A DNA stretch of 63,132 bases, the filler included, from Actinomycetota bacterium (GTDB lineage Bacteria > Actinomycetota > CADDZG01 > JAHWKV01 > JAOPZY01), in assembly GCA_025963875.1 (NCBI GenBank). It is 8 parts of 8 records of this genome, joined end to end, with 100 filler letters (N's around TTAATTAATTAA, not from the genome) between each part and the next. Parts side by side here need not be neighbours in the genome. Positions count along the whole stretch, not along the records: positions 7,232 to 16,868 come from JAOPZY010000138.1; 7 more parts are not named here. One strand, given 5' to 3'. The stretch's first letter is position 1; every line of letters starts with the position of its first letter. The notes under the pieces are model-generated. The model saw nothing but the letters and a program-made list of their open reading frames with translations, searched no databases and had not been told where the DNA came from. The position numbers and the translations under genes are program-made. This document shows, piece by piece, positions 1 through 60,222 of the stretch.

Positions 1-231
1 GGCGAGCGCACCACACCTCCGCCCGCGAACCTTGCTCTCCATCCGGTCTCCATCCCACCTTCGCACCCCGTGCGCAGCGGTCCGGTTCACTGAGTCGCTC
101 GAGCGTCCCCAAACGAAGGAGCGACCTATCCTCGTGCTCGCAGCCCCATGCCTGGCACCGAAGCCGAGTCGCCCGCGCACTGAAGCTCATCCCGCACGGC
201 GCGGGCTTCCGATCCGAAGTAGAGCCTCCTG

Positions 232-7131: not shown

Positions 7132-7231
7132 NNNNNNNNNNNNNNNNNNNNNNNNNNNNNNNNNNNNNNNNNNNNTTAATTAATTAANNNNNNNNNNNNN
7201 NNNNNNNNNNNNNNNNNNNNNNNNNNNNNNN
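7132..7231. other. Artificial contig linker; identical linkers at 16869-16968, 25930-26029, 33096-33195, 38557-38656, 51793-51892 and 60123-60222
   Basis: 100-nt N runs enclosing TTAATTAATTAA, which has stops in all six frames. Confidence 0.99.
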
Positions 7232-8646
7232 TCGCCGGTCCCGAAGAGCCGCTTCCATCGCCAGGCCACCTCACGGGTGAGCGGATCGATCCGCTCACGG
7301 ATCATCCTGTCCGCGGTCTCCTGCAGGACCTCGGCCGCGGCCTGCGTGATCGCCTCACGACGGTAGGCCGCGAGCTGCGCCGCCTCGGCGCCCTCCGCCT
7401 CCTCCACGCTCCGGAGCTGCTCCACGAGCTGGGCGCGCCGGCCCCCGAGCTCGGCGATCCTCTGGTCGTTCTCCCGCAGCCTGGCGGCCGCCCGCCGATG
7501 GCGCAGGTCGGCCTCGTCCAGATCCAGCACCGGTGCGTCGGGAACGGGAGGGGCGCCGGGCACCGAGCGCAGATCGCTGAGGAGGCGGCGGACCGCTGCG
7601 AGGCGGTCCTCGAGCTCAGCCGCCAGTCGCCGCACCTCGGAGGCCTGCCCGCTTGCCGTGGCAAGGGCCTCTTCGTGCTCGTGGATGGCGTGGGAGGCCT
7701 CGCCGGGCGTGATCGGGCGGAGGCAGGTCGGGCAGATGGCGCCGGCCTCCCGAAGCCGTTCGATCGTGGCCAGCTCCGCGGAGCCCCGTGCCTGATGGCC
7801 CGCAGCCTCCTGCCTGACCGCCTCCAACCGGTGCTGGATCTCCTCCTCCAGCGTGCCGAGGCGGGTAAGGGCCTCGCGCACCTCGACCTGGCCGAGATCC
7901 TCGGCTCTCGACAGCAGCTCCTCGATCTGGACCTCCCGCTGGGCGACGGCCCGCCGGTGATCCGCCCACCTCTGCGCTGCCTGGCGGATGGAGGCTGCCT
8001 CGGAGGCCAGCTCCTCCAGCGTGGACCTCGCCTCGTTCAGCCCGGCCAGCTGCTCGTCGATGCCCTCGACCGTCCGGCCGATCGCGGAGCGGTCCTGGGC
8101 CTGCTTTTTTTCGATGCTGCGGACGAGCTCCCTGGCCTGCCGCGCCTCCTTCGCCCCCCGGGCGGCCGTCTCTGCGGCGTCGAGCAGGGCGGAGACGCCG
8201 AAGACCCGGAACAGGTGGTCGCGGAGCTGGAACTCCTTCCCGCTGGCGATGTGGCTGCCGTCGGTCATGAAGGCGAGTCGCCCCAGGATCGAGGGGTCGA
8301 TGGCGAACTCCTCCTGGAGGATCGCCGGGAGATCGGTCACCGGTTCGCCGTCGAGGAGGATCTCGCTGCTCGTCCTGCCGCGGGCCGTGACGCTGCGTTC
8401 GATCTCGAGCCGCTTGCCGTCGGGCAGCTCCACCTCGAGCTGGACGGACGCGTGGTCGGCGTCGCCACGGACGCTGGACGCCGCGTCGACGTTCGACGCC
8501 TCCCCGAGCAGCCCCCAGGCGGCACCCATCACGATGGAGGACTTGCCGACGCCGTTGGCAGCGACGAGGAAGGTGACGCCTTCTTCGAAGGTGAGGTCAA
8601 GCCGGTCGTAGGCCCGCCAGTTGGTGAGGCTCAGCCGCCGGATCAT
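7232..8646 (-). CDS. Rad50/SbcC-like SMC-type ABC ATPase, C-terminus cut by contig end
   Basis: N-terminal IRRLSLTNWRAY, Walker A AANGVGKSS, coiled coils and a central zinc-hook-like CPTC. Confidence 0.88.
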
Positions 8647-9566
8647 GCCGCCTCCGTGGTGATCTGGCTGATGCGCTCGCCGATATCGTCCGCGGCGAGG
8701 TGCCCCCGGGCAACGTCCATCACGAGCTTGGCCAGCTCCTCGACCTCTTCCTCGCCGAGCGCGGCGAAGGCGAACGCCTTGGCGGGGATCCGGGCCCGCG
8801 ACGCCTCGTCCTTCAGACGCCGGACCACTGCGGTGGCCGTCTCGGCAGCCAGCACCGCCACGTCGAAGTCGCTCTCTGCGTGGATGATCGTCCCGGGCTC
8901 TTCCCAGACCGGCTCGATCTCGTCCAGATAGCTCGCCAGGGCGGCCACGAGCGGAAGCCTGGGGCGGCGGGGCCGGGGGCCGATCCGCAGTCCGGTCGGG
9001 GTCTCGACCGCCGGCCGGCAGTCCTGGGCCTCCACCAACAGGCAGGAGAGGTCGTCATCGTCGGCGACGAGCGCGACGGCAGCGGTCTCGGGGAACCGAT
9101 AGAAAAGCCGGTCGGCTTCCCGGAGCAGCTCCCCGGGATGAGAGAGCTCGTCGGGGCCGACGATCATGGCGCGGATCCTCACCCCTGCGACCCGTACGAG
9201 CAGGTCGGAGGGGGCATCGGGCAGCTCCGCCGCCTCCTCGTCGGTCAGCACGACCGCGCCCCGGTTCATGCGCTGGATGTCACGGGTGATCCGGCGCCGG
9301 GCATCCTCCCGCCGCGCGGCCACAGCGGGGGCCGCGGCCTCGACCGGCATGAAGCCCAACGCCCTGGCCACCGGGTCGTCCTCGAGGGGGGGGACGAGGT
9401 CGGCGTCGATGCCGGCGATGGCGTCGAGCAGCGTGAAGGTCCGCTGGAGTTCCGCACGCTCCTGCTCGTCCACTCCCGCAAGGTCGGGGGCTTCCCCTCC
9501 CTCCAACACGTGCCGAAGATAGGCATCGACCATGTCGTCGGGGTGATTGCCCCGCTGCTCGCTCAT
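8643..9566 (-). CDS. Hypothetical protein, 307 aa, acidic
   Basis: ATGA overlaps with both neighbours; GAGGAG RBS; coding-like composition. Confidence 0.85.
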   Translation of the reverse strand: MSEQRGNHPDDMVDAYLRHVLEGGEAPDLAGVDEQERAELQRTFTLLDAIAGIDADLVPPLEDDPVARALGFMPVEAAAPAVAARREDARRRITRDIQRMNRGAVVLTDEEAAELPDAPSDLLVRVAGVRIRAMIVGPDELSHPGELLREADRLFYRFPETAAVALVADDDDLSCLLVEAQDCRPAVETPTGLRIGPRPRRPRLPLVAALASYLDEIEPVWEEPGTIIHAESDFDVAVLAAETATAVVRRLKDEASRARIPAKAFAFAALGEEEVEELAKLVMDVARGHLAADDIGERISQITTEAA

Positions 9567-10210
9567 TGTCGCTCCTCCTCTCCGGTCACCAGAGCCGAAC
9601 CCTCCTCGGACTGCTCACGCTCGACGCACTGCCGCAGCGCCTCGAGGCCCTTCTGGCGGTGCTTGCGAACGGCCGTGTGCGAGATGCCGAGGTCGTTGCC
9701 GATCTCGGTCAGCGTGCGGCGCTTCATGACGCTCTCGTGGACCACCCGGCGCTGCCGTCCGGTGAGCCGTTGGAGGCAATCCCTCGCGCGGCGCCACCGC
9801 TCCTCCTGGCGTCGGAGCTCCTCGACGGAGAAATACTCCTCCTCGGCACTCTCGGCGTAGCCAGGCGCCTGCCCGGGTTCGGCACGCAGCAGGTCCGCCG
9901 GCAGCGTCGCCATGGCGGTTTCCTTCTTCCATTGCCGCCTCGCCGCGATCCCCCGGTCCAGTCCCCGCCGGTAGGCGATCGTCCTGGCGATGCTGTCCGG
10001 CGACGCCACCTTGGCGAAATCGAGCGCCATGAACTCCGTGAAGGCCTGCTGCACCGCCTCCGCGATCGCGTCCCGGTCCCGTACGCCCACCCGCCGGGCT
10101 CCCCGGGCGGCCGCGTACCAGAGTGGGCTCCTCAGGCACTCGTAAACCTCCGGCCAGTTGGTGCTGCCCGCCGCGACATTCGAGAGCAGGCTCTCGAGAC
10201 CCTGAACCAT
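9563..10210 (-). CDS. ECF-like sigma-70 family factor
   Basis: Region-2-like AEAVQQAFTEF...IAYRRGLD; region-4 HTH LTGRQRRVV...TLTEIGNDLGISHTAVRKH; AAAGGAG RBS before ATG 10210. Confidence 0.85.
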   Translation of the reverse strand: MVQGLESLLSNVAAGSTNWPEVYECLRSPLWYAAARGARRVGVRDRDAIAEAVQQAFTEFMALDFAKVASPDSIARTIAYRRGLDRGIAARRQWKKETAMATLPADLLRAEPGQAPGYAESAEEEYFSVEELRRQEERWRRARDCLQRLTGRQRRVVHESVMKRRTLTEIGNDLGISHTAVRKHRQKGLEALRQCVEREQSEEGSALVTGEEERQ

Positions 10211-10443
10211 TGCTCCTTTATACGCGAACGACTCGCCCATATGTCGACGGCTCCGTCGGTTCTGAAACCCACGAGTATTCCGGCGTGCCCGGGGTTCAAG
10301 GAGGGGGTTTCAGACGAACGCGTCCACTCGACTACCGGATGAGGGGGTCTCCACAGGGGAGGTCGCAATCGAGCACCCCGCTGAAGAGGCTCCCGGCAGG
10401 CTGTGCCGTGGGCGTCGGCGGGACCGGGACGGGAGGAAGGCTC

Positions 10444-10692
10444 ATGAGTCAAGGATCCCAGGAATGCGTCGACATGCTGCAGTGCGAGTGCGGTTCGACC
10501 GAGCTGTGCATCGCATACAGGACGCCGGTATTCGCCCACGTCCGAGATCGAAAGGTCGTCCGGGTCATCGTGCCCGACGAGCAGGAGCTCGTGCTGGGCG
10601 GCGTGGTTCGCTGCGAGACCTGCGACCGCTTCTGGATCCTGGACGGCGAGCCCGACGTGGGGCCCTGGCCCGACTGGGAGCTCGGCCGCTGA
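10444..10692 (+). CDS. Small Cys-rich, putative Zn-ribbon protein (82 aa)
   Basis: CECGS and CETC motifs, GGAGGAAGG RBS, stop overlaps the ku start (TGATG). Confidence 0.7.
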   Translation: MSQGSQECVDMLQCECGSTELCIAYRTPVFAHVRDRKVVRVIVPDEQELVLGGVVRCETCDRFWILDGEPDVGPWPDWELGR

Positions 10693-11543
10693 TGCAGTCG
10701 GTGTGGAGAGGGGCCATCTCCTTCGGGCTGGTGAGCATCCCCGTCCGCCTCTACGTCGCGGTCCAGGAGCGGGGCATGCGTTTCCACCAGCTCCACGCCG
10801 CCGACCAGGGCCGCATCCGCTACCGGAGGGTCTGCTCGGTCTGCGGCGAGGAGGTGCCGTTCCACGACATCGTCAAGGGATACGAGTTCGAGAAGGACCG
10901 TCACGTGAGCTTCACCGAGGAGGAGCTCCAGCGCCTTCCCGTGGAGACCTTCAAGGCGATCGACATCGTCAGCTTCGTGTCCCTGCAGGAGATCGACCCG
11001 ATCTACTTCCAGCGTTCCTACTACGTGATCCCCGAGCCCACGGGGCTGAAGGCCTACCGGCTGCTCGAGCAGACCCTGGGCCAGTCCGGCCGGATCGCCA
11101 TCGCCAGGGTCGTCCTGTTCCGGAAGGAGCACCTTGCCGTTCTCCGGGCCCGTGGCGGGACCTTCCTCCTGGAGACCATGTACTGGCCGGACGAGATCCG
11201 TACGCCGGAGTTCGATGTCCTGGCGAAGCCGGTGGAGCTGCGCAAGCAGGAGGTGGCGCTGGCCGGGAACCTCACCGAGCTCCTCACCGAGCGGTTCGAC
11301 CCGGCGCAGTTCGTCGACGGACACCGGCGGCGGTTGGAGGAGCTGGCGCAGGCCAAGGTCGAGGGCGAGGAGGTCGTGGCCGCCACCGCCGCCCCGTCCG
11401 GCCAGGTCCGGGACCTCCTGGAGGCGCTCCGGGCCAGCGTCGAGGCCGAGAAGGAGAAGCCGAGGAAGGAATCCAAGCCCTCCCGGCGGCGGTCACCGGA
11501 AGGTAAGGAGCAGAGCGCGCGAATGCGCGCGAAAAACGACTAA
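10692..11543 (+). CDS. ku: Ku protein (NHEJ DNA end-binding)
   Basis: SVWRGAISFGLVSIPVRLY, IVKGYE, IDPIYF and WPDEIR motifs; basic C-terminal tail. Confidence 0.96.
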   Translation: MQSVWRGAISFGLVSIPVRLYVAVQERGMRFHQLHAADQGRIRYRRVCSVCGEEVPFHDIVKGYEFEKDRHVSFTEEELQRLPVETFKAIDIVSFVSLQEIDPIYFQRSYYVIPEPTGLKAYRLLEQTLGQSGRIAIARVVLFRKEHLAVLRARGGTFLLETMYWPDEIRTPEFDVLAKPVELRKQEVALAGNLTELLTERFDPAQFVDGHRRRLEELAQAKVEGEEVVAATAAPSGQVRDLLEALRASVEAEKEKPRKESKPSRRRSPEGKEQSARMRAKND

Positions 11544-11552
11544 CGTCGGGGC

Positions 11553-12791
11553 ATGGCCAGGATCCAGCACCGCGCGGCTCCCCCCGCGTTGGCCCCTCCT
11601 CCAGCATCGGGCGGTGAGCTTGTGCTGATGCTGGCGGTGTTCCTGGTGCTTGCCGCGCCTTTTCTCTACCTGAATTTCCGCTCGGGCCTTGTTCCGGGGG
11701 ATTTCCTGATCTACCGGAAGGCCAGCAGCCTGGCGCTGCATCTCGGCGACCCGTATGCCAGGAACTTCACCGAACACCTCCGCGTCCCCCTGCCCTTCAC
11801 CTACCCTCCCTTCGCCGCCATCGCGCTGGTGCCCCTCGCCCTGGCGCCGCCGCACCTTTCCCTGTGGGTGTGGACGTCGTTCAGCCTGGCCCTCGTGGCC
11901 GCCCTGGCCTGGTGGCTCGTGCGGCCCTCCCTGTGGCGCGCTGGCTGGGGGCATCCCGCCCTTCTCGGGGTGGCCGCGGCGCTGCTCGTTTGGACGGTCC
12001 CGGTCGGCCAGACGCTGCACTACGGTCAGGTCAACCTCGTGCTGGCATGTGCCTGTCTGGTGGACTGCACCCGGGTCACGCGCGGGCGAGGGGTGTTGGT
12101 GGGGATTGCCACCGCGGTGAAGCTCACCCCGGGACTGTTCATCCTCTACTTCGCTGCGACCAGGCAATGGGCCGCCGCGGCGCGTGCCGGCGGGACCGCT
12201 GCCGGGTGCACCCTGCTCGCCGCAGCTCTGTTGCCCCGTCCATCCCAGGAGTACTGGTTGCACCTGGTCTTCGATCCCAGCCGGCCCGGCAACCCCCTCT
12301 CGCCTATCAACGAGTCGCTCTACGGAGCGCTCCTGCGAGCCGGAGGGCCCAAGGAGATCTGGCCCTTGCTGGTGCTCGGAGCGGCCGGACTCGGGCTGTG
12401 GCAGGCCGCGTGCGCCCACAAGGCTGGGGCCGAGGTGGCGGCGGTGGCCCTGGTCGGGCTCACCGCCGTGTTGATTTCCCCGGTCTCCTGGCCGCACCAC
12501 GCGGTGTGGGTCGTCCCGGTGCTGGGCGTTCTGGCGGCGTGGGCAACGAGCCCGGTGCGGCCCGGCCGCGTCGCCACCGCCCTGGTGGTGTTGGCCCTCC
12601 TGATCGTCCCGGTGCCTCAGGTCGCGAGCGCCCTGGGAGTACCCGACCACATTCCGATCGTCTCCCGTGCGGTGGGGGAGTCGAACACGTTGATCTTCCT
12701 CGCGATGCTGGTGGCCCTCCCCCTCGTGGCGGTCACGGAGGGAGAGCGCGCACGGGCAATGAGGCTGGCTGATCAGGCGCCGTACGCGTAG
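11553..12791 (+). CDS. GT87 family membrane glycosyltransferase (mannosyltransferase-like); start uncertain
   Basis: DFLIY, PFTYPPFAA, GQVN, AVKLTPG and SPVSWPHH motifs. Confidence 0.9.
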   Translation: MARIQHRAAPPALAPPPASGGELVLMLAVFLVLAAPFLYLNFRSGLVPGDFLIYRKASSLALHLGDPYARNFTEHLRVPLPFTYPPFAAIALVPLALAPPHLSLWVWTSFSLALVAALAWWLVRPSLWRAGWGHPALLGVAAALLVWTVPVGQTLHYGQVNLVLACACLVDCTRVTRGRGVLVGIATAVKLTPGLFILYFAATRQWAAAARAGGTAAGCTLLAAALLPRPSQEYWLHLVFDPSRPGNPLSPINESLYGALLRAGGPKEIWPLLVLGAAGLGLWQAACAHKAGAEVAAVALVGLTAVLISPVSWPHHAVWVVPVLGVLAAWATSPVRPGRVATALVVLALLIVPVPQVASALGVPDHIPIVSRAVGESNTLIFLAMLVALPLVAVTEGERARAMRLADQAPYA

Positions 12792-12899
12792 GGCTTGTCG
12801 CGCTCACTCTGCGTGGTCGCACGGAGTTTCAATACGGACCAGTGGAGGCAAATTGTCCAGTTTCCCGGGGGGTTTCCGGCAGGGGCGGAGACGGTCATC

Positions 12900-13269
<370 letters not shown>

Positions 13270-13312
13270 TCATGGTGGTGGGTGTCATTGACGCGGAACG
13301 CCGAAACGCCGC

Positions 13313-13969
13313 CTACGCCTGAGGAGCAGACAGGGGCGGTAGGGCGAAGCGCTGGCGGACGGCGGCTTGGACCTCTGCGACGGAAAGCGTCGCGTCGATC
13401 GTTGCGACGAACTCCTTGCGCTGGAAGATCTCGATCAGCGGCCGCGTCTGCTCGTGGTACGCCTGCAGGCGCACGGCGAGCGCCTCGGGGTTGTCGTCGG
13501 CTCGAGCGATCAGCCGCCCCCCGCAGACGTCGCAGGTATCCGCCACCGCCGGCCGGTGGGCAATGAGGTTGTAGTCAAGACCGCACTGGGAGCAGAGCCG
13601 CCGGGCGAGTACCCGGCGCGCCACCTCCTCGTCGGGGAGATGCAGATCGATCACGCCGTCGATGTCATAGCTCTCGAGGAAAAACTCTGCCTGGCGGGCA
13701 TTGCGCGGGAACCCATCGACAATGAAGCCGAAGTTCCAGTCGTGGTCGTCAAGGCGGCGCCGCACCACGGACTCGACGAGGTCGTCGTCAACCAGGTGGC
13801 CCGCCGCAATGATGCGCTTCACCTGGGCACCAAGCTTGGTGCGATGCTGGACGTTCCACCGGAAGAGATCGCCGACGCTGATGTGCTCGAGGTTCAGATC
13901 GTCCGCGAGCAACTTCGCCTGCGTTCCCTTGCCGCTGCCCTGGATCCCCATGATGACGTACTTACGCAT
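13313..13969 (-). CDS. adk: Adenylate kinase with Zn-binding LID
   Basis: GIQGSGKGTQA, HISVGDLFR, DGFPR, CSQC...CDVC. Confidence 0.93.
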   Translation of the reverse strand: MRKYVIMGIQGSGKGTQAKLLADDLNLEHISVGDLFRWNVQHRTKLGAQVKRIIAAGHLVDDDLVESVVRRRLDDHDWNFGFIVDGFPRNARQAEFFLESYDIDGVIDLHLPDEEVARRVLARRLCSQCGLDYNLIAHRPAVADTCDVCGGRLIARADDNPEALAVRLQAYHEQTRPLIEIFQRKEFVATIDATLSVAEVQAAVRQRFALPPLSAPQA

Positions 13970-13973
13970 GCAG

Positions 13974-14852
13974 TTACCTTCGGATGTAGCCTTTCGGGAT
14001 CCAGGTCTGGCTGTCAATTGGTGGTCGTTTGTAGGCGCGTTCCTGGCGGGAAGGCAGCTCGACGGCCTCGTAGGGGATCTCCTGGTAGGGAACCACGCTC
14101 AGCAGGTGCGAGATCAGGTTCAGACGGGCGCATTTCTTGTCGTTGGCGTCCACCACGTACCAGGGGGCCTCCTTGATGTCCGTGAAAGAAAACATCTCGT
14201 CTTTGGCCTCGGCGTAGTCCACCCAGCGCGCCCGGGCCTGGAGGTCCATGGGGCTCAGCTTCCAGCGTTTGCCCGGGTTGTCGATACGCTCGAGGAAGCG
14301 CCGTTCCTGTTCCTCGTCACTGAGCGACATCCAGTACTTGACGAGCACGATGCCCGAGTGGACCAGGGCTCGCTCGATCTGCGGGCACGTGCGCAGGAAT
14401 TCGTCGTATTCGCTGGGGGTACAAAAGCCCATGACGTGCTCGACGCCGGCCCGGTTGTACCAGCTCCGATCGAACAGCACGATCTCACCAGCTGCGGGCA
14501 GATGCGGGACGTATCGCTGGAAGTACCACTGGCTCTTCTCCCGCTCCGACGGGGTCCCGAGGGCGACCACCCGGGCGTAGCGGGCATTGAGCCGCTCCAT
14601 GATCCGCTTGATGGTGCCGCCTTTGCCCGCCGTGTCGCGGCCCTCGAACAGCACGCAGAGCCGCAGGCCTTCGTGGACGATCCACTCCTGCATCTTCACG
14701 AGCTCGGTCTGGAGGCGGCCGAGTTCGGCGTCGTAGAACTTGGAGGTGACAACGATGGGATCGGCCCCGTTGGAGAGAGCCGAGACCGAGGCGATCCGCC
14801 CCGGCGCGCGTGCCTTGCCCTTGCTGTCCTTGCCCGCAGCGGACTTGACCAT
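13974..14852 (-). CDS. ppk2: Polyphosphate kinase 2
   Basis: FEGRDTAGKGG, QWYFQRY, FDRSWYNRAGVE and WKLSPMD motifs. Confidence 0.96.
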   Translation of the reverse strand: MVKSAAGKDSKGKARAPGRIASVSALSNGADPIVVTSKFYDAELGRLQTELVKMQEWIVHEGLRLCVLFEGRDTAGKGGTIKRIMERLNARYARVVALGTPSEREKSQWYFQRYVPHLPAAGEIVLFDRSWYNRAGVEHVMGFCTPSEYDEFLRTCPQIERALVHSGIVLVKYWMSLSDEEQERRFLERIDNPGKRWKLSPMDLQARARWVDYAEAKDEMFSFTDIKEAPWYVVDANDKKCARLNLISHLLSVVPYQEIPYEAVELPSRQERAYKRPPIDSQTWIPKGYIRR

Positions 14853-14889
14853 GGAGCATGGTGCTTCCGGACCGCGCAGATTGTCAATG

Positions 14890-14925
14890 GTGATCCGAGT
14901 GCTCCGAGTGATCCGTCTGACCCGT
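14890..14925. repeat. Four imperfect 9-bp tandem units
   Basis: GTGATCCGA GTGCTCCGA GTGATCCGT CTGACCCGT in the ppk2/glnII divergent region. Confidence 0.7.
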
Positions 14926-14933
14926 CGGCGAGC

Positions 14934-14971
14934 GTGACACGCGCGAAACAAGCCGGCAACTGGCCAGCAAT
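14934..14971 (+). promoter_or_regulatory. GlnR box upstream of glnII
   Basis: GTGAC-n6-GAAAC-n6-GCAAC-n6-GCAAT, matching the actinobacterial GlnR consensus GTnAC-n6-GAAAC with 11-bp periodicity. Confidence 0.8.
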
Positions 14972-15054
14972 ACCTACCTGTTACGCTCGCCGCTCAAAGG
15001 GCACGCCCTGGTAGCCAAGAAGGGGTGCTCACCGAGCGATCGGAGGAGCAAACG

Positions 15055-16086
15055 ATGAGCTACCAGGCCGAGTACATCTGGATCGACGGGACGGAACCTA
15101 CCCCGCTGATGCGTTGCAAAACACGAATCGTCAACTCCGGCAAGGAGCCCAAGACGTGGGGCTTCGACGGCTCCAGCACCAACCAGGCCCCCGGCGAGAA
15201 CTCCGATTGCGTCCTCGAGCCGGTGTTCGTCTGCCCCGACCCGATCCGCAACGGGGACAACGTCCTCGTCCTCTGTGACGTGCTGCTTCCGGACGGCAGC
15301 CCCCACGCCACCAACACGCGGGCGGCCTGCGCCGCCGCCGCCGAGGAGTACGCGGATCAGGAGCCGATGTTCGGCATCGAGCAGGAGTACACCTTCATGC
15401 AGAACGGCCGGCCTCTCGGATGGCCCGAGGTCGGGTATCCGGCGCCCCAGGGTCCGTACTACTGCGGGGTCGGCGGGGGCAAGATGGTCGGCCGCGACAT
15501 CATCGAGGCCCACACCATTGCCTGCCTCAATGCCGGGCTCTCGATCGAGGGCACCAACGCCGAGGTGATGATGGCCCAGTGGGAATTCCAGATCGGGGTG
15601 CTTCCCGCGCCCCGCATTGCCGACGAGATCTGGATGGGCCGCTGGCTTCTCTACCGCATCGCCGAAGACTTCGACGTGGACGTCACCCTCGCCGCCAAGC
15701 CCGTGCCGGGAGACTGGAACGGGGCCGGTGCCCACACGAACTTCTCCACCATCGCCACCCGAGAGAGCTACGACGCCATCATCACGGCCTGTGAGGCGCT
15801 CGGGAAGGACCCGCTCAAGCACGTGAAGAACTACGGTGTCGGCATCGAGGACCGCCTCACCGGGGCGCACGAGACCGCCCACTGGAACACGTTCTACTAC
15901 GGGTCGTCCGATCGGGGGGCCTCCGTGCGCATCCCCTGGGCCGTCGAGAAGGCGAAGAAGGGATGGCTCGAGGACCGGCGCCCCAACGCCAACATGGACC
16001 CTTACGTCGTCACCCGCCTCATGATCGAGACCTGCTGCGGGGCTCTTGCGGAGCCTAAAAAGCTGGCGGTGGCTGTCTCCGCTTAG
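15055..16086 (+). CDS. glnII: Glutamine synthetase type II
   Basis: AEYIWIDG, WGFDGSSTNQA, PQGPYYCG, GDWNGAGAHTNFS and EDRRP; 343 aa; GGAGG RBS. Confidence 0.96.
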   Translation: MSYQAEYIWIDGTEPTPLMRCKTRIVNSGKEPKTWGFDGSSTNQAPGENSDCVLEPVFVCPDPIRNGDNVLVLCDVLLPDGSPHATNTRAACAAAAEEYADQEPMFGIEQEYTFMQNGRPLGWPEVGYPAPQGPYYCGVGGGKMVGRDIIEAHTIACLNAGLSIEGTNAEVMMAQWEFQIGVLPAPRIADEIWMGRWLLYRIAEDFDVDVTLAAKPVPGDWNGAGAHTNFSTIATRESYDAIITACEALGKDPLKHVKNYGVGIEDRLTGAHETAHWNTFYYGSSDRGASVRIPWAVEKAKKGWLEDRRPNANMDPYVVTRLMIETCCGALAEPKKLAVAVSA

Positions 16087-16088
16087 CT

Positions 16089-16868
16089 TCAGAGGGGCTG
16101 GCGCCAGGCACGCTCGAACGGCAGCCGCCAGGCGTGCGGTGCGATGAGGTGGCGCATCGCGTCGGGACCCCAGGAACCCGGCGGGTAGATCTGGACCTCG
16201 GGAGGGGCCTCCAGTAACGGCATCGAGACCTCCCAGAGCCGCTCGATGCCCTCCGCCGCCGTGAACAGCGTGCGGTCTCCGCTCATCGCATCGTGGATCA
16301 GCCGTTCGTAGGCCTCCAGGACGTCGAGATCTCTGCCGGTGTCGTGGAGGGCGAACTGGAGGCTCAGTTTGTCCAGGGTCATGCCCGGTCCGGGCCTCTT
16401 CCCGTAGAACGACAGGGAGAGCTTGGACGCGTCGGCCAGATCGAAGGTCAGGTGGTCCGGTCCGTGCGCTCCCACGCCCGAGCTGGCATGGAACATGCTC
16501 CTGGGGGGCTCCCGGAACGCGATGGAGATGATGCGTGCGCCTTCGGCCATCCGCTTCCCCGTCCGTAGAAAGAACGGAACGCCCGCCCACCGCCAGTTGT
16601 CGATCTCGCACCGCAGAGCCACAAACGTCTCTGTCTGGGAGTCCGGTGCCACGCCCGGCAGCTTCCGGTATCCGTCGTACTGCCCACGGACAACCTGGCG
16701 CACGTCGATCGGCAACATGGAGCGAAACACCTTGTTCTTCTCCTCGCTGATGGCTCGCGGTTCCAGCGCGGTCGGGGGTTCCATGGCCATGAACGCGAGG
16801 ATCTGGAACAGGTGGGTCACCACCATGTCGCGAAACGCACCCGTCGCCTCGTAGAAACCGGCGCGGCC
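16089..16868 (-). CDS. zwf: Glucose-6-phosphate dehydrogenase, C-terminal part
   Basis: RDMVVTHLFQ, RGQY, TETF, WRWAGVPFFLRTGKRM, AYERL. Confidence 0.95.
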   Translation of the reverse strand, partial: GRAGFYEATGAFRDMVVTHLFQILAFMAMEPPTALEPRAISEEKNKVFRSMLPIDVRQVVRGQYDGYRKLPGVAPDSQTETFVALRCEIDNWRWAGVPFFLRTGKRMAEGARIISIAFREPPRSMFHASSGVGAHGPDHLTFDLADASKLSLSFYGKRPGPGMTLDKLSLQFALHDTGRDLDVLEAYERLIHDAMSGDRTLFTAAEGIERLWEVSMPLLEAPPEVQIYPPGSWGPDAMRHLIAPHAWRLPFERAWRQPL

Positions 16869-16968
16869 NNNNNNNNNNNNNNNNNNNNNNNNNNNNNNNN
16901 NNNNNNNNNNNNTTAATTAATTAANNNNNNNNNNNNNNNNNNNNNNNNNNNNNNNNNNNNNNNNNNNN

Positions 16969-25892: not shown

Positions 25893-26078
25893 ACGGCGCG
25901 GCCCCGGCGCAGGTCCGCCTCCCAGGGGANNNNNNNNNNNNNNNNNNNNNNNNNNNNNNNNNNNNNNNNNNNNTTAATTAATTAANNNNNNNNNNNNNNN
26001 NNNNNNNNNNNNNNNNNNNNNNNNNNNNNCGGGCCGGCGGCCCACCGGGTGCTGTCACGGCCTCCGAGGTCGAATGCC

Positions 26079-33095: not shown

Positions 33096-33226
33096 NNNNN
33101 NNNNNNNNNNNNNNNNNNNNNNNNNNNNNNNNNNNNNNNTTAATTAATTAANNNNNNNNNNNNNNNNNNNNNNNNNNNNNNNNNNNNNNNNNNNNATGGC
33201 GCGGTAGAAATAACAAGGATATTTAG

Positions 33227-38556: not shown

Positions 38557-38750
38557 NNNNNNNNNNNNNNNNNNNNNNNNNNNNNNNNNNNNNNNNNNNN
38601 TTAATTAATTAANNNNNNNNNNNNNNNNNNNNNNNNNNNNNNNNNNNNNNNNNNNNAGACGCCCTGGGGCGTCGGTTCGCCCGCCGGCGGCATCGGTATC
38701 CTTGCGGCGGCACCATCCAATTCACGACGACCGCGGGATCCGGGACGCGC

Positions 38751-51792: not shown

Positions 51793-51892
51793 NNNNNNNN
51801 NNNNNNNNNNNNNNNNNNNNNNNNNNNNNNNNNNNNTTAATTAATTAANNNNNNNNNNNNNNNNNNNNNNNNNNNNNNNNNNNNNNNNNNNN

Positions 51893-60122: not shown

Positions 60123-60222
60123 NNNNNNNNNNNNNNNNNNNNNNNNNNNNNNNNNNNNNNNNNNNNTTAATTAATTAANNNNNNNNNNNNNNNNNNNNNN
60201 NNNNNNNNNNNNNNNNNNNNNN

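Follow-up and report, generated by a model that had tools for sequence, protein, structure and literature searches.

A conserved triad of sigma factor, nuclease-fold protein and Rad50-like ATPase as a candidate DNA-responsive transcriptional cassette

An operon encoding an ECF-type sigma factor, a protein of 307 aa (here termed X) and a Rad50-like ATPase was identified in a 63,132-nucleotide window from an Actinomycetota bacterium (GCA_025963875.1). The window, meaning the whole stretch of DNA analyzed, consists of contigs concatenated through N44-TTAATTAATTAA-N44 linkers. The triad is conserved across several phyla. On balance, we favor reading it as a portable cassette in which X would serve as an anti-sigma factor and the ATPase as a sensor, with the sigma factor driving its own operon and a neighboring output operon.

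All three genes lie on the minus strand (Table 1) and are chained by 4-nt ATGA overlaps, sigma/X at 9563–9566 and X/ATPase at 8643–8646, as a first-pass annotation of the same DNA had described. That annotation had ended the operon at 10210, which the ORF calls bear out in that the ATG there has AAGGAG just 5′ of it and is a likelier sigma start than 10240. It had also cautioned that genes past 7232 were out of sight; the contig junction at this position cuts the ATPase ORF after residue 471. The window sigma factor, previously called ECF-like, scores above the cut-offs of both Pfam Sigma70_r4 (34.7 bits against 24.1) and NCBIfam TIGR02937 sigma70-ECF (46.5 bits against 42.9, residues 48–205), and sigma ORFs of relatives also match Sigma70_r2. 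Judged by these profiles, the protein fits the ECF-type sigma-70 make-up of region 2 and region 4 only.

Table 1. Features of the cassette and its surroundings, in window coordinates
Feature	Position	Strand	Basis or remark
Artificial contig linker	7132–7231	none	
Mini-Rad50/SMC-type ABC ATPase gene, residues 1–471 of ~583	7232–8646	−	
CPTC zinc-hook motif, residues 305–308, coiled-coil apex	7723–7734	−	C305, P306 and C308 invariant in 16/16
Walker A ANGVGKSS, residues 29–36	8539–8562	−	G32, G34 and K35 invariant in 16/16
Protein X gene, 307 aa, acidic, predicted anti-sigma adaptor	8643–9566	−	
X residues 236–306, C-terminal helical domain	8649–8861	−	predicted structure
X residues 77–220, restriction-endonuclease (PD-(D/E)xK) fold domain	8907–9338	−	structure comparison
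X residues 9–73, helical N-terminal region, predicted contact with sigma regions 2 and 4	9348–9542	−	complex model
ECF-type sigma gene (sigma2 + sigma4)	9563–10210	−	longest ORF start 10240; ATG at 10210 likelier
Promoter-like motif TTTCA-N16-CGACA, ~30 nt upstream of sigma start 10210	10243–10267	−	DNA pattern search
Second motif copy, oriented toward the small ORF–Ku operon and back to back with the first	10308–10332	+	DNA pattern search
Small Cys-rich ORF, 82 aa, first gene of divergent operon	10444–10692	+	58–80% identical copies in L001, L003, L011, L012
Ku gene (NHEJ end-binding protein)	10692–11543	+	Pfam Ku, E 2.8e-49

A pattern search of species-representative genomes returned 176 matches, 148 of which encode the ATPase family. 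The best 80 of these 148 were kept and span Actinomycetota, Chloroflexota, Alpha-, Gamma- and Deltaproteobacteria, Latescibacterota, Acidobacteriota, Longimicrobiales and Dormiibacterota. In 65 of the 68 loci with sufficient upstream DNA, the end of an X-like ORF abuts the ATPase start, and a sigma-family ORF lies 5′ of the X-like gene in 58 of 64; among the six misses, L089 and L091 have a sigma gene by other calls. The sigma–X–SMC synteny that the first-pass annotation had proposed as a check is kept across several phyla. Pfam Sigma70_r2 or r4 is matched by 43 of 67 upstream ORFs, and 65 of 66 form two groups that hhalign relates at 97.1% probability. A jackhmmer search seeded with the window sigma stopped short of the main sigma group; it was this hhalign comparison, over 173 columns, that linked the window sigma with the sigma genes of other triads. 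Relatives of X were recovered by alignment-based searches only: a single-protein search of species genomes with X found nothing, and tblastn of a clade-C X against 72,556 plasmids gave no match.

Protein X is acidic, as first described (pI 4.52; 61 D+E versus 34 K+R), and matches no Pfam or NCBIfam family. Its N-terminus, modeled as three short helices, was placed against the sigma factor with an ipSAE of 0.80 (runs 0.80, 0.81 and 0.53) versus 0.01 for the best control, a score that may mirror the sigma/anti-sigma complexes already solved rather than prove binding. Contact agreement among runs was at least 53% and partner pLDDT at least 65; the ipSAE mark applied is passed by 58 of 80 solved complexes and by 2 of 110 mismatched pairs. 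In the modeled interface, X residues 9–73 face sigma residues 29–68 and 145–207, and the N-terminus is predicted to occupy, like an anti-sigma factor, the space between sigma regions 2 and 4, in line with the earlier proposal that the middle protein binds the sigma factor. One natural sigma–X fusion exists (P0179), in which the sigma HMM matches residues 4–209 (E 4.8e-62) and X covers 237–540. Four X variants carry an HTH_31 domain, which would couple the common sensor portion to another kind of DNA-binding output.

Class I anti-sigma domains of cytoplasmic ECF pairs include ZAS proteins such as RsrA. The cassette resembles such pairs in its sigma2+sigma4 factor, in a co-transcribed soluble partner predicted to insert between the two regions, and in its likely autoregulation. 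It differs in that the putative anti-sigma factor has a nuclease-fold domain and is coupled translationally to an obligatory Rad50-like ATPase. The window X also has neither the ZAS motif H-x3-C-x2-C in its sequence nor a match to a Pfam anti-sigma family; the motif is visible at the N-terminus of one distant X variant (P0300).

The predicted structure of X residues 77–220 has the restriction-endonuclease core fold. A wide VIA-align search retrieved Hjc (1gef_A; Z 9.3, rmsd 3.7, 110 aligned) and BpuSI (3s1s_A; Z 9.1, rmsd 3.4, 125 aligned), followed by more nuclease-fold chains. The top Foldseek rows for X were all Hjc (best E 8.4e-3), with no match at E 0.001 or better. When strands are assigned by secondary-structure order, strand 2 starts at S120/D121, with D in 14 of 53 sequences, and strand 3 carries R130 (49/53) and R132 (48/53); further conserved acidic positions are D109, D/E160 (53/53) and D182. 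By this assignment, the canonical catalytic PD-(D/E)xK residues do not appear to be conserved and catalysis appears doubtful. The domain might nevertheless retain activity, in which case the model would move closer to a nuclease complex. In the C-terminal helical domain, which possibly contacts the ATPase, R257-A258-R259 and K263 are conserved.

The window ATPase matches Pfam AAA_23 (E 1.2e-12), and both its Walker A and its CPTC hook were located, in keeping with its first description as a compact SMC-type ATPase. Full-length relatives (583 aa) carry the signature LSGGE and the Walker B sequence FVWLDEP and match Pfam AAA_23 and SMC_N. An AF2 model (pLDDT 85.6) comprises two heads and two long helical arms of ~150 residues (151–299 and 314–468) with CPTC at the apex. 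Profile comparison retrieved archaeal Rad50 heads (E 4.8e-13) and Rad50 hook structures (6zff, E 1.4e-7; 1l8d, E 7.2e-7), while Foldseek placed Rad50 7zr1 first (E 6e-16) and LmuB 9hqu_A at rank 33, behind Rad50 and SMC heads. The protein has the traits of the Rad50 type: an ABC head with Walker A, signature and Walker B, and an antiparallel coiled coil with a CxxC hook.

The promoter-like motif upstream of the sigma gene occurs three times in the 63 kb of the window (0.81 expected), two of the matches standing back to back within 90 bp. The third, at 14924–14948, could be chance, and 8 of 100 shuffles reach three matches. All five clade A loci (the window contig and its four closest relatives, L001, L003, L011 and L012) have the motif pair together with the small ORF and Ku. 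In clade C, the dyad TGTCG-N17-GAAA is found in 18 of 26 intergenic regions and TTTCA-N16-CGAC in 17 of 26 (shuffled maximum 5), counts that shared ancestry inflates, as it does for the other clades, since the related loci that yielded the motif are also those in which it was counted. One copy lies just before sigma in 26/26 clade C loci, and a second faces the E1-family operon in 24/26, back to back with the first if that operon is divergent and ~2 kb upstream if it is co-directional. Clade D displays GTTGT-N17-CGACA ahead of sigma, with another copy immediately past the ATPase gene that precedes CBASS genes in L083, L084, L085 and L091 and Multi_ubiq/Prok-E2_E/ThiF genes in L086. In clade B (Actinomycetota MAGs), the dyad was seen in 20 of 27 upstream regions and a stricter pattern in 20 loci; in 17 of them the site is 11 nt from the called sigma start on its upstream side, and in one more locus this distance is 25 nt. 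No second copy was found near the clade B sigma locus, and genome-wide counts of the exact pattern in five genomes (4, 8, 0, 3 and 5 versus 0, 3, 0, 2 and 0 for the reversed control) were close to background and revealed no clear regulon. The sigma operon is likely autoregulated via a cognate promoter, and the output of the cassette appears to be transcriptional, with one motif preceding both the sigma operon and an adjacent operon. The first-pass annotation had left the output as transcriptional or abortive; the shared motif, as a sequence pattern, argues for the former.

What lies next to the motif varies among lineages. The small Cys-rich ORF, which matches no Pfam family, shares one base of its TGA stop with the ATG of Ku (TGATG), and the two genes form the predicted sigma target at the window locus. 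A ThiF/E1-family protein is found among the triad neighbors in 30 loci, Multi_ubiq near the triad in L017 and L086, and Prok-E2_E in L081 and L086; no DUF6527 (BubE) was detected among the flanking ORFs screened. These genes recall type II Bub/“6E” operons, with the difference that they are a predicted output outside the triad and that the 115-aa partner of the clade-C E1-family protein belongs to no Pfam family. This partner was considered as a ubiquitin-like protein and rejected, as it has no Pfam match and no C-terminal Gly-Gly. The E1-family module is absent from the window contig. Many clade C and D loci adjoin CBASS, GmrSD, ResIII+methylase, Mrr, AbiEii, Fic, transposase and integrase genes. 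The first-pass proposal held up in each part that in silico analysis could address, with qualifications: on the window contig the cassette has housekeeping neighbors, no defence island and Ku as its likely target, and it looks more like a controller of other systems than like an effector of defence.

Relatives of the ATPase are publicly annotated as “repair protein SbcC/Rad50” or “DNA repair exonuclease SbcCD ATPase subunit”, as a housekeeping sbcC fragment lying by chance after two unrelated genes would be. Such a coincidence is scarcely credible given the full length of 583 aa, the linkage of X and sigma across loci, and a score of 71.2 bits (with the 471-aa window fragment as query) against a cut-off of 1087 for the best NCBIfam Rad50 model, PRK02224. 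None of the screened loci has an adjacent SbcD-type gene: none lies 5′ of the window ATPase, as had been noted at first pass, none is among 27 screened genes downstream of relatives’ ATPases, and the flanking ORFs screened in the window and relatives contain no phosphoesterase match. An ordinary SbcC, sbcD downstream and unconserved linkage had been named at first pass as the findings that would count against the proposal; the linkage is instead conserved, and by its score and the neighbors screened the ATPase is not an ordinary SbcC with sbcD. A repair nuclease of the Mre11–Rad50/SbcCD kind, with X as nuclease subunit, the ATPase as its Rad50 partner and the sigma factor merely regulating the operon, would account for the ABC head interrupted by an antiparallel coiled coil bearing a CxxC hook, for a co-transcribed partner of nuclease-type fold and for Ku next door in the window’s clade. 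By analogy, the helical tail that follows the X nuclease fold recalls Mre11, in which the nuclease is joined to Rad50-binding helices. We nonetheless consider this account unlikely. The ATPase has 583 aa versus ~880 positions in NCBIfam Rad50 models and falls far below Rad50 family cut-offs, and X has a predicted PD-(D/E)xK fold apparently lacking the canonical catalytic motif, not a calcineurin-type phosphoesterase fold. Moreover, the anti-sigma-like N-terminus of X is predicted to clamp a sigma factor that is encoded in the same operon and fused to X in one protein, and the triad is constant while its outputs vary (Ku, E1-family module, CBASS), which is the behavior of a regulator.

The order of a small variable protein, a middle protein and a compact SMC-like ATPase of ~600 aa resembles Lamassu (LmuA-LmuC-LmuB) and ABC three-component systems. 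One PADLOC LmuB model, PDLC03859, gives a weak, near full-length match to the L001 ATPase (residues 2–560; 57.3 bits, for which PADLOC has no curated cut-off), although PADLOC mad3 outscores it at 82.9 bits. In a Lamassu-like abortive defence, the ATPase would sense phage DNA, and either an X nuclease or a sigma-like toxic binder of RNA polymerase would bring about death or dormancy; the nuclease fold of X and the defence-type neighbors in part of the family (many clade C and D loci) fit this scheme. It is nevertheless improbable, as neither sigma nor X matches PADLOC LmuA or LmuC at E 0.01 or better (sequence models only), the ATPase is nearer Rad50 than LmuB by both profile and fold, and X appears not to conserve the catalytic residues. 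In place of an LmuA effector, the first gene encodes a complete sigma2+sigma4 factor whose cognate promoter-like motif is conserved ahead of both its own and the neighboring operon. This suits a functional sigma factor and not a toxin, and the motifs would indicate that genes are switched on rather than that an effector is released. The cassette is neither housekeeping SbcCD nor a recognizable Lamassu. Another alternative retains the sigma/anti-sigma pair and has the ATPase answer a non-DNA cue (a protein or the nucleotide pool) or act as a mere assembly scaffold. The ATPase N-terminal head weakly matches PtuA, and some defence systems use SMC-like ATPases in non-DNA contexts, PtuA of retron and Septu systems being an example. 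This version is more doubtful still, given the zinc-hook Rad50 architecture and the nature of the outputs, namely Ku end repair and immune operons of the kind that, in passages of PMC11601596, have the DNA-damage-responsive regulators CapW/BrxR and CapH/CapP.

Three sources (PMC11601596; 10.1101/2024.11.21.623966; PMC10557695) describe CapW/BrxR and CapH+CapP as regulating CBASS, Bub and other immune operons, with reported switching-on after DNA damage or infection. Like the present cassette, these are small regulatory cassettes beside varied immune operons (CBASS, ubiquitin-like conjugation). They are repressors (WYL-HTH, or HTH plus protease), whereas the sigma–X–ATPase cassette is a predicted activator, and no sequence relationship between the two was seen.

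In the favored cassette model, the N-terminal helices of X, wedged between sigma regions 2 and 4, would hold the sigma factor at rest. X occupies the position relative to the ATPase that Mre11/SbcD has relative to Rad50 and probably docks on it. The ATPase cue would most likely be abnormal or foreign DNA, such as free ends, and an ATP-driven change in the ATPase would free the sigma factor. Triad conservation, the X–sigma interface and the shared motif are in silico results, while we infer DNA-end sensing and the coupling of the ATPase to X from gene order, co-conservation and family analogy, and also infer the X–ATPase contact and sigma release. Freed sigma factor would direct RNA polymerase to promoters of the TTTC-N17-CGACA type, activating its own operon and one neighboring output operon. 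Where the output is the small Cys-rich protein plus Ku, as in the window and its closest relatives, end-joining repair would be turned on by the cassette, which in other lineages would drive E1-family modules of ubiquitin-like conjugation type or CBASS operons.

The first-pass annotation knew of no described system with this architecture, and literature searches, with incomplete coverage of key comparative surveys, likewise found no description of a sigma/X/Rad50-like cassette. The terms SMC, Rad50, nuclease, DNA repair, ATPase and RecF are all absent from the main text of the ECF reclassification (PMC7826278), and one of its supplements contains no AAA_23, SMC_N, Rad50 or SbcC. More tentatively, the triad could represent a new class of bacterial signal transduction, in which a Rad50-like ATPase and a nuclease-fold anti-sigma factor detect DNA ends or invading DNA and release a sigma factor for an attached output (Ku end joining, ubiquitin-like conjugation or CBASS), forming a modular, horizontally exchanged “DNA alarm”. 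If the cassette model holds, SMC/Rad50-type ATPases would join sigma/anti-sigma signaling as a third component class, and detection of abnormal DNA would be coupled directly to a dedicated promoter set. Together with its defined promoter motif, the cassette may offer an orthogonal DNA-damage- or phage-responsive switch. It would also account for the switching-on of some CBASS and ubiquitin-like conjugation operons, and of Ku in one actinobacterial lineage, and would give the poorly understood E1-family operons a concrete, testable regulator.

The window contains fourteen N44 runs flanking seven TTAATTAATTAA spacers and is thus a chain of eight contigs; because these linkers are artificial, genes or synteny spanning a linker point are artefacts. 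The triad of an ECF-type sigma gene, the gene for protein X and the gene for a mini-Rad50/SMC-type ATPase sits on contig 7232–16868, beside genes assigned by Pfam to Ku, GT87, adenylate kinase, PPK2, a GlnA-like protein and G6PD. The first-pass annotation had described three minus-strand genes chained by ATGA overlaps, and the ORF map displays a 4-nt ATGA overlap at both the sigma/X and the X/ATPase junctions. Its end coordinate of 10210 corresponds to the likely ATG start of the sigma gene, which is preceded by AAGGAG. The C-terminal end of the ATPase was taken from relatives (the window copy stops at the linker).

Features of the window, with regions of the X model in residue numbers
Feature	Position	Strand	Remarks
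Linkers, N44-TTAATTAATTAA-N44	7132–7231, 16869–16968, 25930–26029, 33096–33195, 38557–38656, 51793–51892, 60123–60222
ATPase ORF	from 8646 into linker at 7232	minus	471 residues present
X ORF	8643–9566	minus	307 aa
Sigma ORF	9563–10240	minus	225 aa
Motif copy 1	10243–10267	minus	236-bp gap between sigma and divergent operon
Motif copy 2	10308–10332	plus	same 236-bp gap, back to back with copy 1
Cys-rich 82-aa ORF	10444–10692	plus	first gene of divergent operon
Ku	10692–11543	plus	Pfam Ku, E 2.8e-49
PPK2 ORF	13974–14951	minus	Pfam domain starts at residue 71
Third exact TTTCR-N16-CGAC	14924–14948	minus	at start of PPK2 ORF
X, N-terminal helices	residues 9–22, 34–50, 65–69		AF2 model
X, helix and alpha/beta domain	residues 79–217		AF2 model
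X, C-terminal helical part	residues 236–306		AF2 model

With X as a single query, 8,000 candidates were scored and 42 relatives passed E ≤0.001; none is characterised, and they come from metagenomes or Actinomycetota MAGs. An X alignment search returned one species-genome locus (relative locus L001) and 11 metagenome loci. Searching with an ATPase alignment gave 176 pattern matches, of which 148 were confirmed and the best 80 of those retained. The retained loci come from Actinomycetota (one cultured Mycobacterium sp. included), Chloroflexota, Alpha-, Gamma- and Deltaproteobacteria, Latescibacterota, Acidobacteriota, Longimicrobiales and Dormiibacterota. When six-frame ORFs of all loci were compared with an X HMM and neighbors counted by script, 65 of the 68 loci with enough upstream DNA proved to have an X-like ORF that ends where the ATPase gene begins, the misses being L074, with a broken ATPase, and L089 and L091, which hold divergent X-sized ORFs there. 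A sigma-family ORF precedes X in 58/64 loci; among those missed in this tally (L021, L033, L068, L074, L089, L091), L089 has Sigma70_r4, L091 has a sigma match, and the L033 miss is due to ORF selection. The anticipated sigma-X-SMC synteny is thus conserved, and in several phyla. At L074:6001–6567, the ATPase match is limited to residues 1–187 and neither X nor sigma was detected; this ATPase is probably a decayed copy.

Sigma70_r2, r4 or ECF models match 43/67 of the ORFs upstream of X (E ≤0.001), and 65/66 upstream ORFs form two phmmer-linked groups (55 + 10) that are related to each other by hhalign (97.1% probability, 173 columns). The window sigma itself scores 34.7 bits against Pfam Sigma70_r4 (cut-off 24.1) and 46.5 bits against NCBIfam TIGR02937 sigma70-ECF (cut-off 42.9, residues 48–205). 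In a library of 1.84 billion proteins, the X profile matched 563 representatives at E ≤0.001, 290 at 1e-10 and 90 at 1e-30. Among 401 sampled genomes from the phylum of one relative, 15 have a match, each in single copy, five of which are unpublished genomes (G006, G023, G086, G178, G243) used in this tally only. The X/triad family is real, moderate in size and patchily distributed over distant phyla.

The window ATPase fragment matches AAA_23 (Pfam) and falls under the cut-off for SMC_N, for which the full-length L001 ATPase reaches 57.7 bits (cut-off 40). Full-length relatives comprise 583–623 aa and carry Walker A, an invariant mid-protein CPTCLRP hook, LSGGE and FVWLDEPLEHLD. Nearest to the family profile among solved sequences are Rad50 heads of archaea (5f3w, E 4.8e-13) together with zinc-hook crystal structures of Rad50 (6zff, 1l8d). 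An AF2 model (pLDDT 85.6) displays a split head and two long helical arms with their apex at CPTC, and the top Foldseek match is Rad50 from the MRN complex (7zr1, E 6e-16). Against the NCBIfam Rad50 models the ATPase reaches at most 71.2 bits (cut-off 1087), SbcC (7yzp) appears 40th in Foldseek, and Lamassu LmuB (9hqu) trails Rad50 in 33rd place; PADLOC returned only weak matches, with 57.3 bits for LmuB and 82.9 bits for mad3, the latter over the heads. Because of these profile, AF2, Foldseek and family-score results, the protein is assigned as a compact zinc-hook Rad50-like ATPase that lies outside the curated Rad50/SbcC families and for which LmuB membership is not demonstrable either.

X is acidic (pI 4.52), with no match in Pfam or NCBIfam and no meaningful match in PADLOC. 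The earlier proposal that this middle protein binds the sigma factor is favored by complex prediction, in which X alignment A3 was paired with sigma alignment A4. The predicted complex scored 0.80 (runs 0.80, 0.81, 0.53) versus 0.01 for the best control, relative to a mark reached by 58/80 solved complexes and 2/110 mismatched pairs, although this pass is a likeness, not proof of binding, because sigma/anti-sigma complexes have already been solved. The runs share at least 53% of contacts, with partner pLDDT of at least 65. The predicted interface places X 9–73 against sigma residues 29–68 (region 2) and 145–207 (region 4), and a sandwich between sigma regions 2 and 4 is the geometry of class I anti-sigma domains. 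Variant architectures among X-family representatives give independent hints of this link: the 540-aa P0179 is a sigma-X fusion, with a sigma HMM match on residues 4–209 (E 4.8e-62) and X on 237–540. Four X variants (P0213, P0242, P0278, P0311) have an HTH_31 domain inserted after the N-terminal region and ahead of the nuclease-fold domain, so the same sensor part is wired to a different DNA-binding output as well. Other family members are longer and start with different N-termini; among them, P0300 bears H-x3-C-x2-C close to its N-terminus.

An AF2 model of X was built on a 53-row alignment (pLDDT 85.2). Foldseek returned weak rows, every one the Holliday-junction resolvase Hjc (best E 8.4e-3), and a wide VIA-align search ranked, over residues 77–220, restriction-endonuclease-fold proteins at the top. 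The fold assignment is of moderate strength, as Z values of 7–8 are common for unmatched models and the matches comprise Hjc 1gef_A (Z 9.3, rmsd 3.7, 110 aligned), BpuSI (Z 9.1), I-Ssp6803I (Z 8.5) and VRR-NUC (Z 7.9). Nuclease activity is doubtful because the canonical catalytic positions do not appear to be kept in the alignment column counts: the expected catalytic Asp falls at S120/D121 (Asp in 14/53), and the expected (D/E)xK site reads R130-x-R132 (Arg in 49/53 and 48/53). Positions that are conserved include D109, D/E160 (53/53), D182, G192, R198, R201, R257-A258-R259 and K263.

Genes adjoining the triad were tallied as up to two called genes on either side in 43 loci, with gene calls from a GC3-based script; 150 of the 162 picked flanking ORFs, excluding the last 12 (L086–L091), were screened against Pfam. 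CBASS parts lie beside the triad in L054, L061, L065, L066 and L083–L085, and the CBASS genes of L061 and L066, a patatin-SMODS pair probably co-transcribed with the triad, begin at the ATPase stop codon. Other neighbors include ResIII with an N6 methylase (L071), a C5 methylase with a PD-(D/E)xK protein (L073), GmrSD with an OLD-like ATPase (L076), Mrr (L041, L051), AbiEii (L072), Fic (L078), SocA (L062), a pPIWI-associated nuclease (L069) and HerA (L058). Transposases or integrases occur nearby in L051, L059, L061, L068 and L086, and many neighbors are plain housekeeping genes, chiefly in clade B, the loci from soil Actinomycetota MAGs. Genes for ubiquitin-like conjugation lie downstream of the ATPase in the same orientation at L017:3776–6024 (Multi_ubiq and ThiF), L081:4648–6620 (Prok-E2_E and ThiF) and L086:5429–7499 (Multi_ubiq, Prok-E2_E and ThiF); DUF6527 (BubE) was not found among the screened flanking ORFs. 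At L082:1928–4276 (plus), two genes lie directly before sigma: one encodes a Metal_CEHH-like protein of 138 aa, and the other, which ends where the sigma gene begins, a 568-aa product with no Pfam family. This pair may be a further output or input module.

A promoter-like motif, counted on related sequences, connects the triad with its neighbors. TTTCR-N16-CGAC occurs three times in the 63-kb window versus 0.81 expected, a count reached in 8/100 shuffles, and the copy at the PPK2 ORF may mark one more target promoter or, at that expected number per window, be due to chance. The other two copies share the gap ahead of the divergent operon, in which the TGA of the 82-aa ORF and the ATG of Ku overlap by one base (TGATG). 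The 82-aa protein (CxC...C...CxxC, no Pfam family) is 58–80% identical to copies in L001, L003, L011 and L012, which belong to clade A like the window, and is a candidate zinc-ribbon partner for Ku. All five clade-A sequences with upstream DNA, the window included, possess the motif pair and small ORF followed by Ku (first 34 residues only on L011), and outer genes vary despite the shared motif and Ku, e.g., a tannase in L001.

Clade C comprises 26 loci with a ThiF/E1-family gene beside the triad. A dyad search of the pre-sigma region found TGTCG-N17-GAAA in 18/26 and its reverse-strand form TTTCA-N16-CGAC in 17/26 (maximum of 5 in 20 shuffles). TTTC-N16-18-CGAC lies 20–60 nt before sigma in 26/26 loci, and a second copy faces the E1-family operon in 24/26 (absent in L073 and L079). 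Where that operon is divergent, the copies stand back to back, 14–27 nt apart; where it is co-directional (L060, L070, L071, L076, L078, L089), the second copy is in the same orientation ~2 kb upstream. The motif travels with its target operon, for which shared intergenic ancestry is no easy explanation. The gene pair carrying this motif adjoins the triad in distant phyla (L042, L051–L080, L088, L089; e.g., L057:2161–4007, minus), and the cultured Mycobacterium sp. RTGN4, the source of L089, has the five-gene form. Its first member encodes 115 aa with a conserved GWLMHSRQITGWGDAP, no Pfam family and no C-terminal Gly-Gly; the second encodes ~500 aa with a central ThiF/E1 domain and ~180 N-terminal residues without assignment. 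At L061:1481–4207 (minus), two transposase genes lie between the divergent promoter of the triad and the remains of the E1 module (94–1001); the insertion divides the predicted regulon.

In clade D (L083–L086, L091), whose loci represent about three independent lineages, GTTGT-N17-CGAC(A/T) lies 6 nt before sigma in L083–L085 and 10 nt in L086, and a second copy follows 23–27 nt past the ATPase stop. This copy precedes SMODS and bacterial HORMA in L083, the same SMODS gene in L085 (HORMA screened in L083), TIR-SAVED in L084, where a later ORF matches SMODS, and the conjugation genes in L086; L091 has an ORF of the same size at the TIR-SAVED position (TIR-SAVED screened in L084 only). In 17 clade-B loci, TTTCGATT-N9-CTGCGATAAG precedes the called sigma start by 11 nt, a spacing that suggests leaderless mRNAs, and in one more the distance is 25 nt. 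The clade-B dyad occurs in 20/27 loci (shuffle maximum 8), with no nearby second copy, and across whole genomes its exact pattern occurs at close to background frequency. A -10-like CGA(C/T)A element is common to all four clades and the -35-like element varies by clade, as would be expected from diverging sigma factors.

Because the triad is constant, the neighboring operon variable and one promoter motif ties both, the arrangement bears the signature of a regulatory cassette. No description of it was found in the literature searched on sigma factors, Lamassu/ABC three-component systems and ubiquitin-like operons, or in the ECF reclassification paper and one supplement, and a prior mention is possible. 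The DNA damage-responsive regulators CapW/BrxR and CapH+CapP are reported beside CBASS and Bub operons, and these sources make no mention of a sigma factor or SMC-type ATPase in a CapW/CapH-like role (PMC11601596; 10.1101/2024.11.21.623966; PMC10557695). By analogy, the role of the cassette would be that of CapW/BrxR and CapH+CapP. The ATPase would act as the sensor, a step that we infer from the zinc-hook Rad50 architecture, the location of X in the Mre11/SbcD position and the outputs, namely Ku and immune operons.
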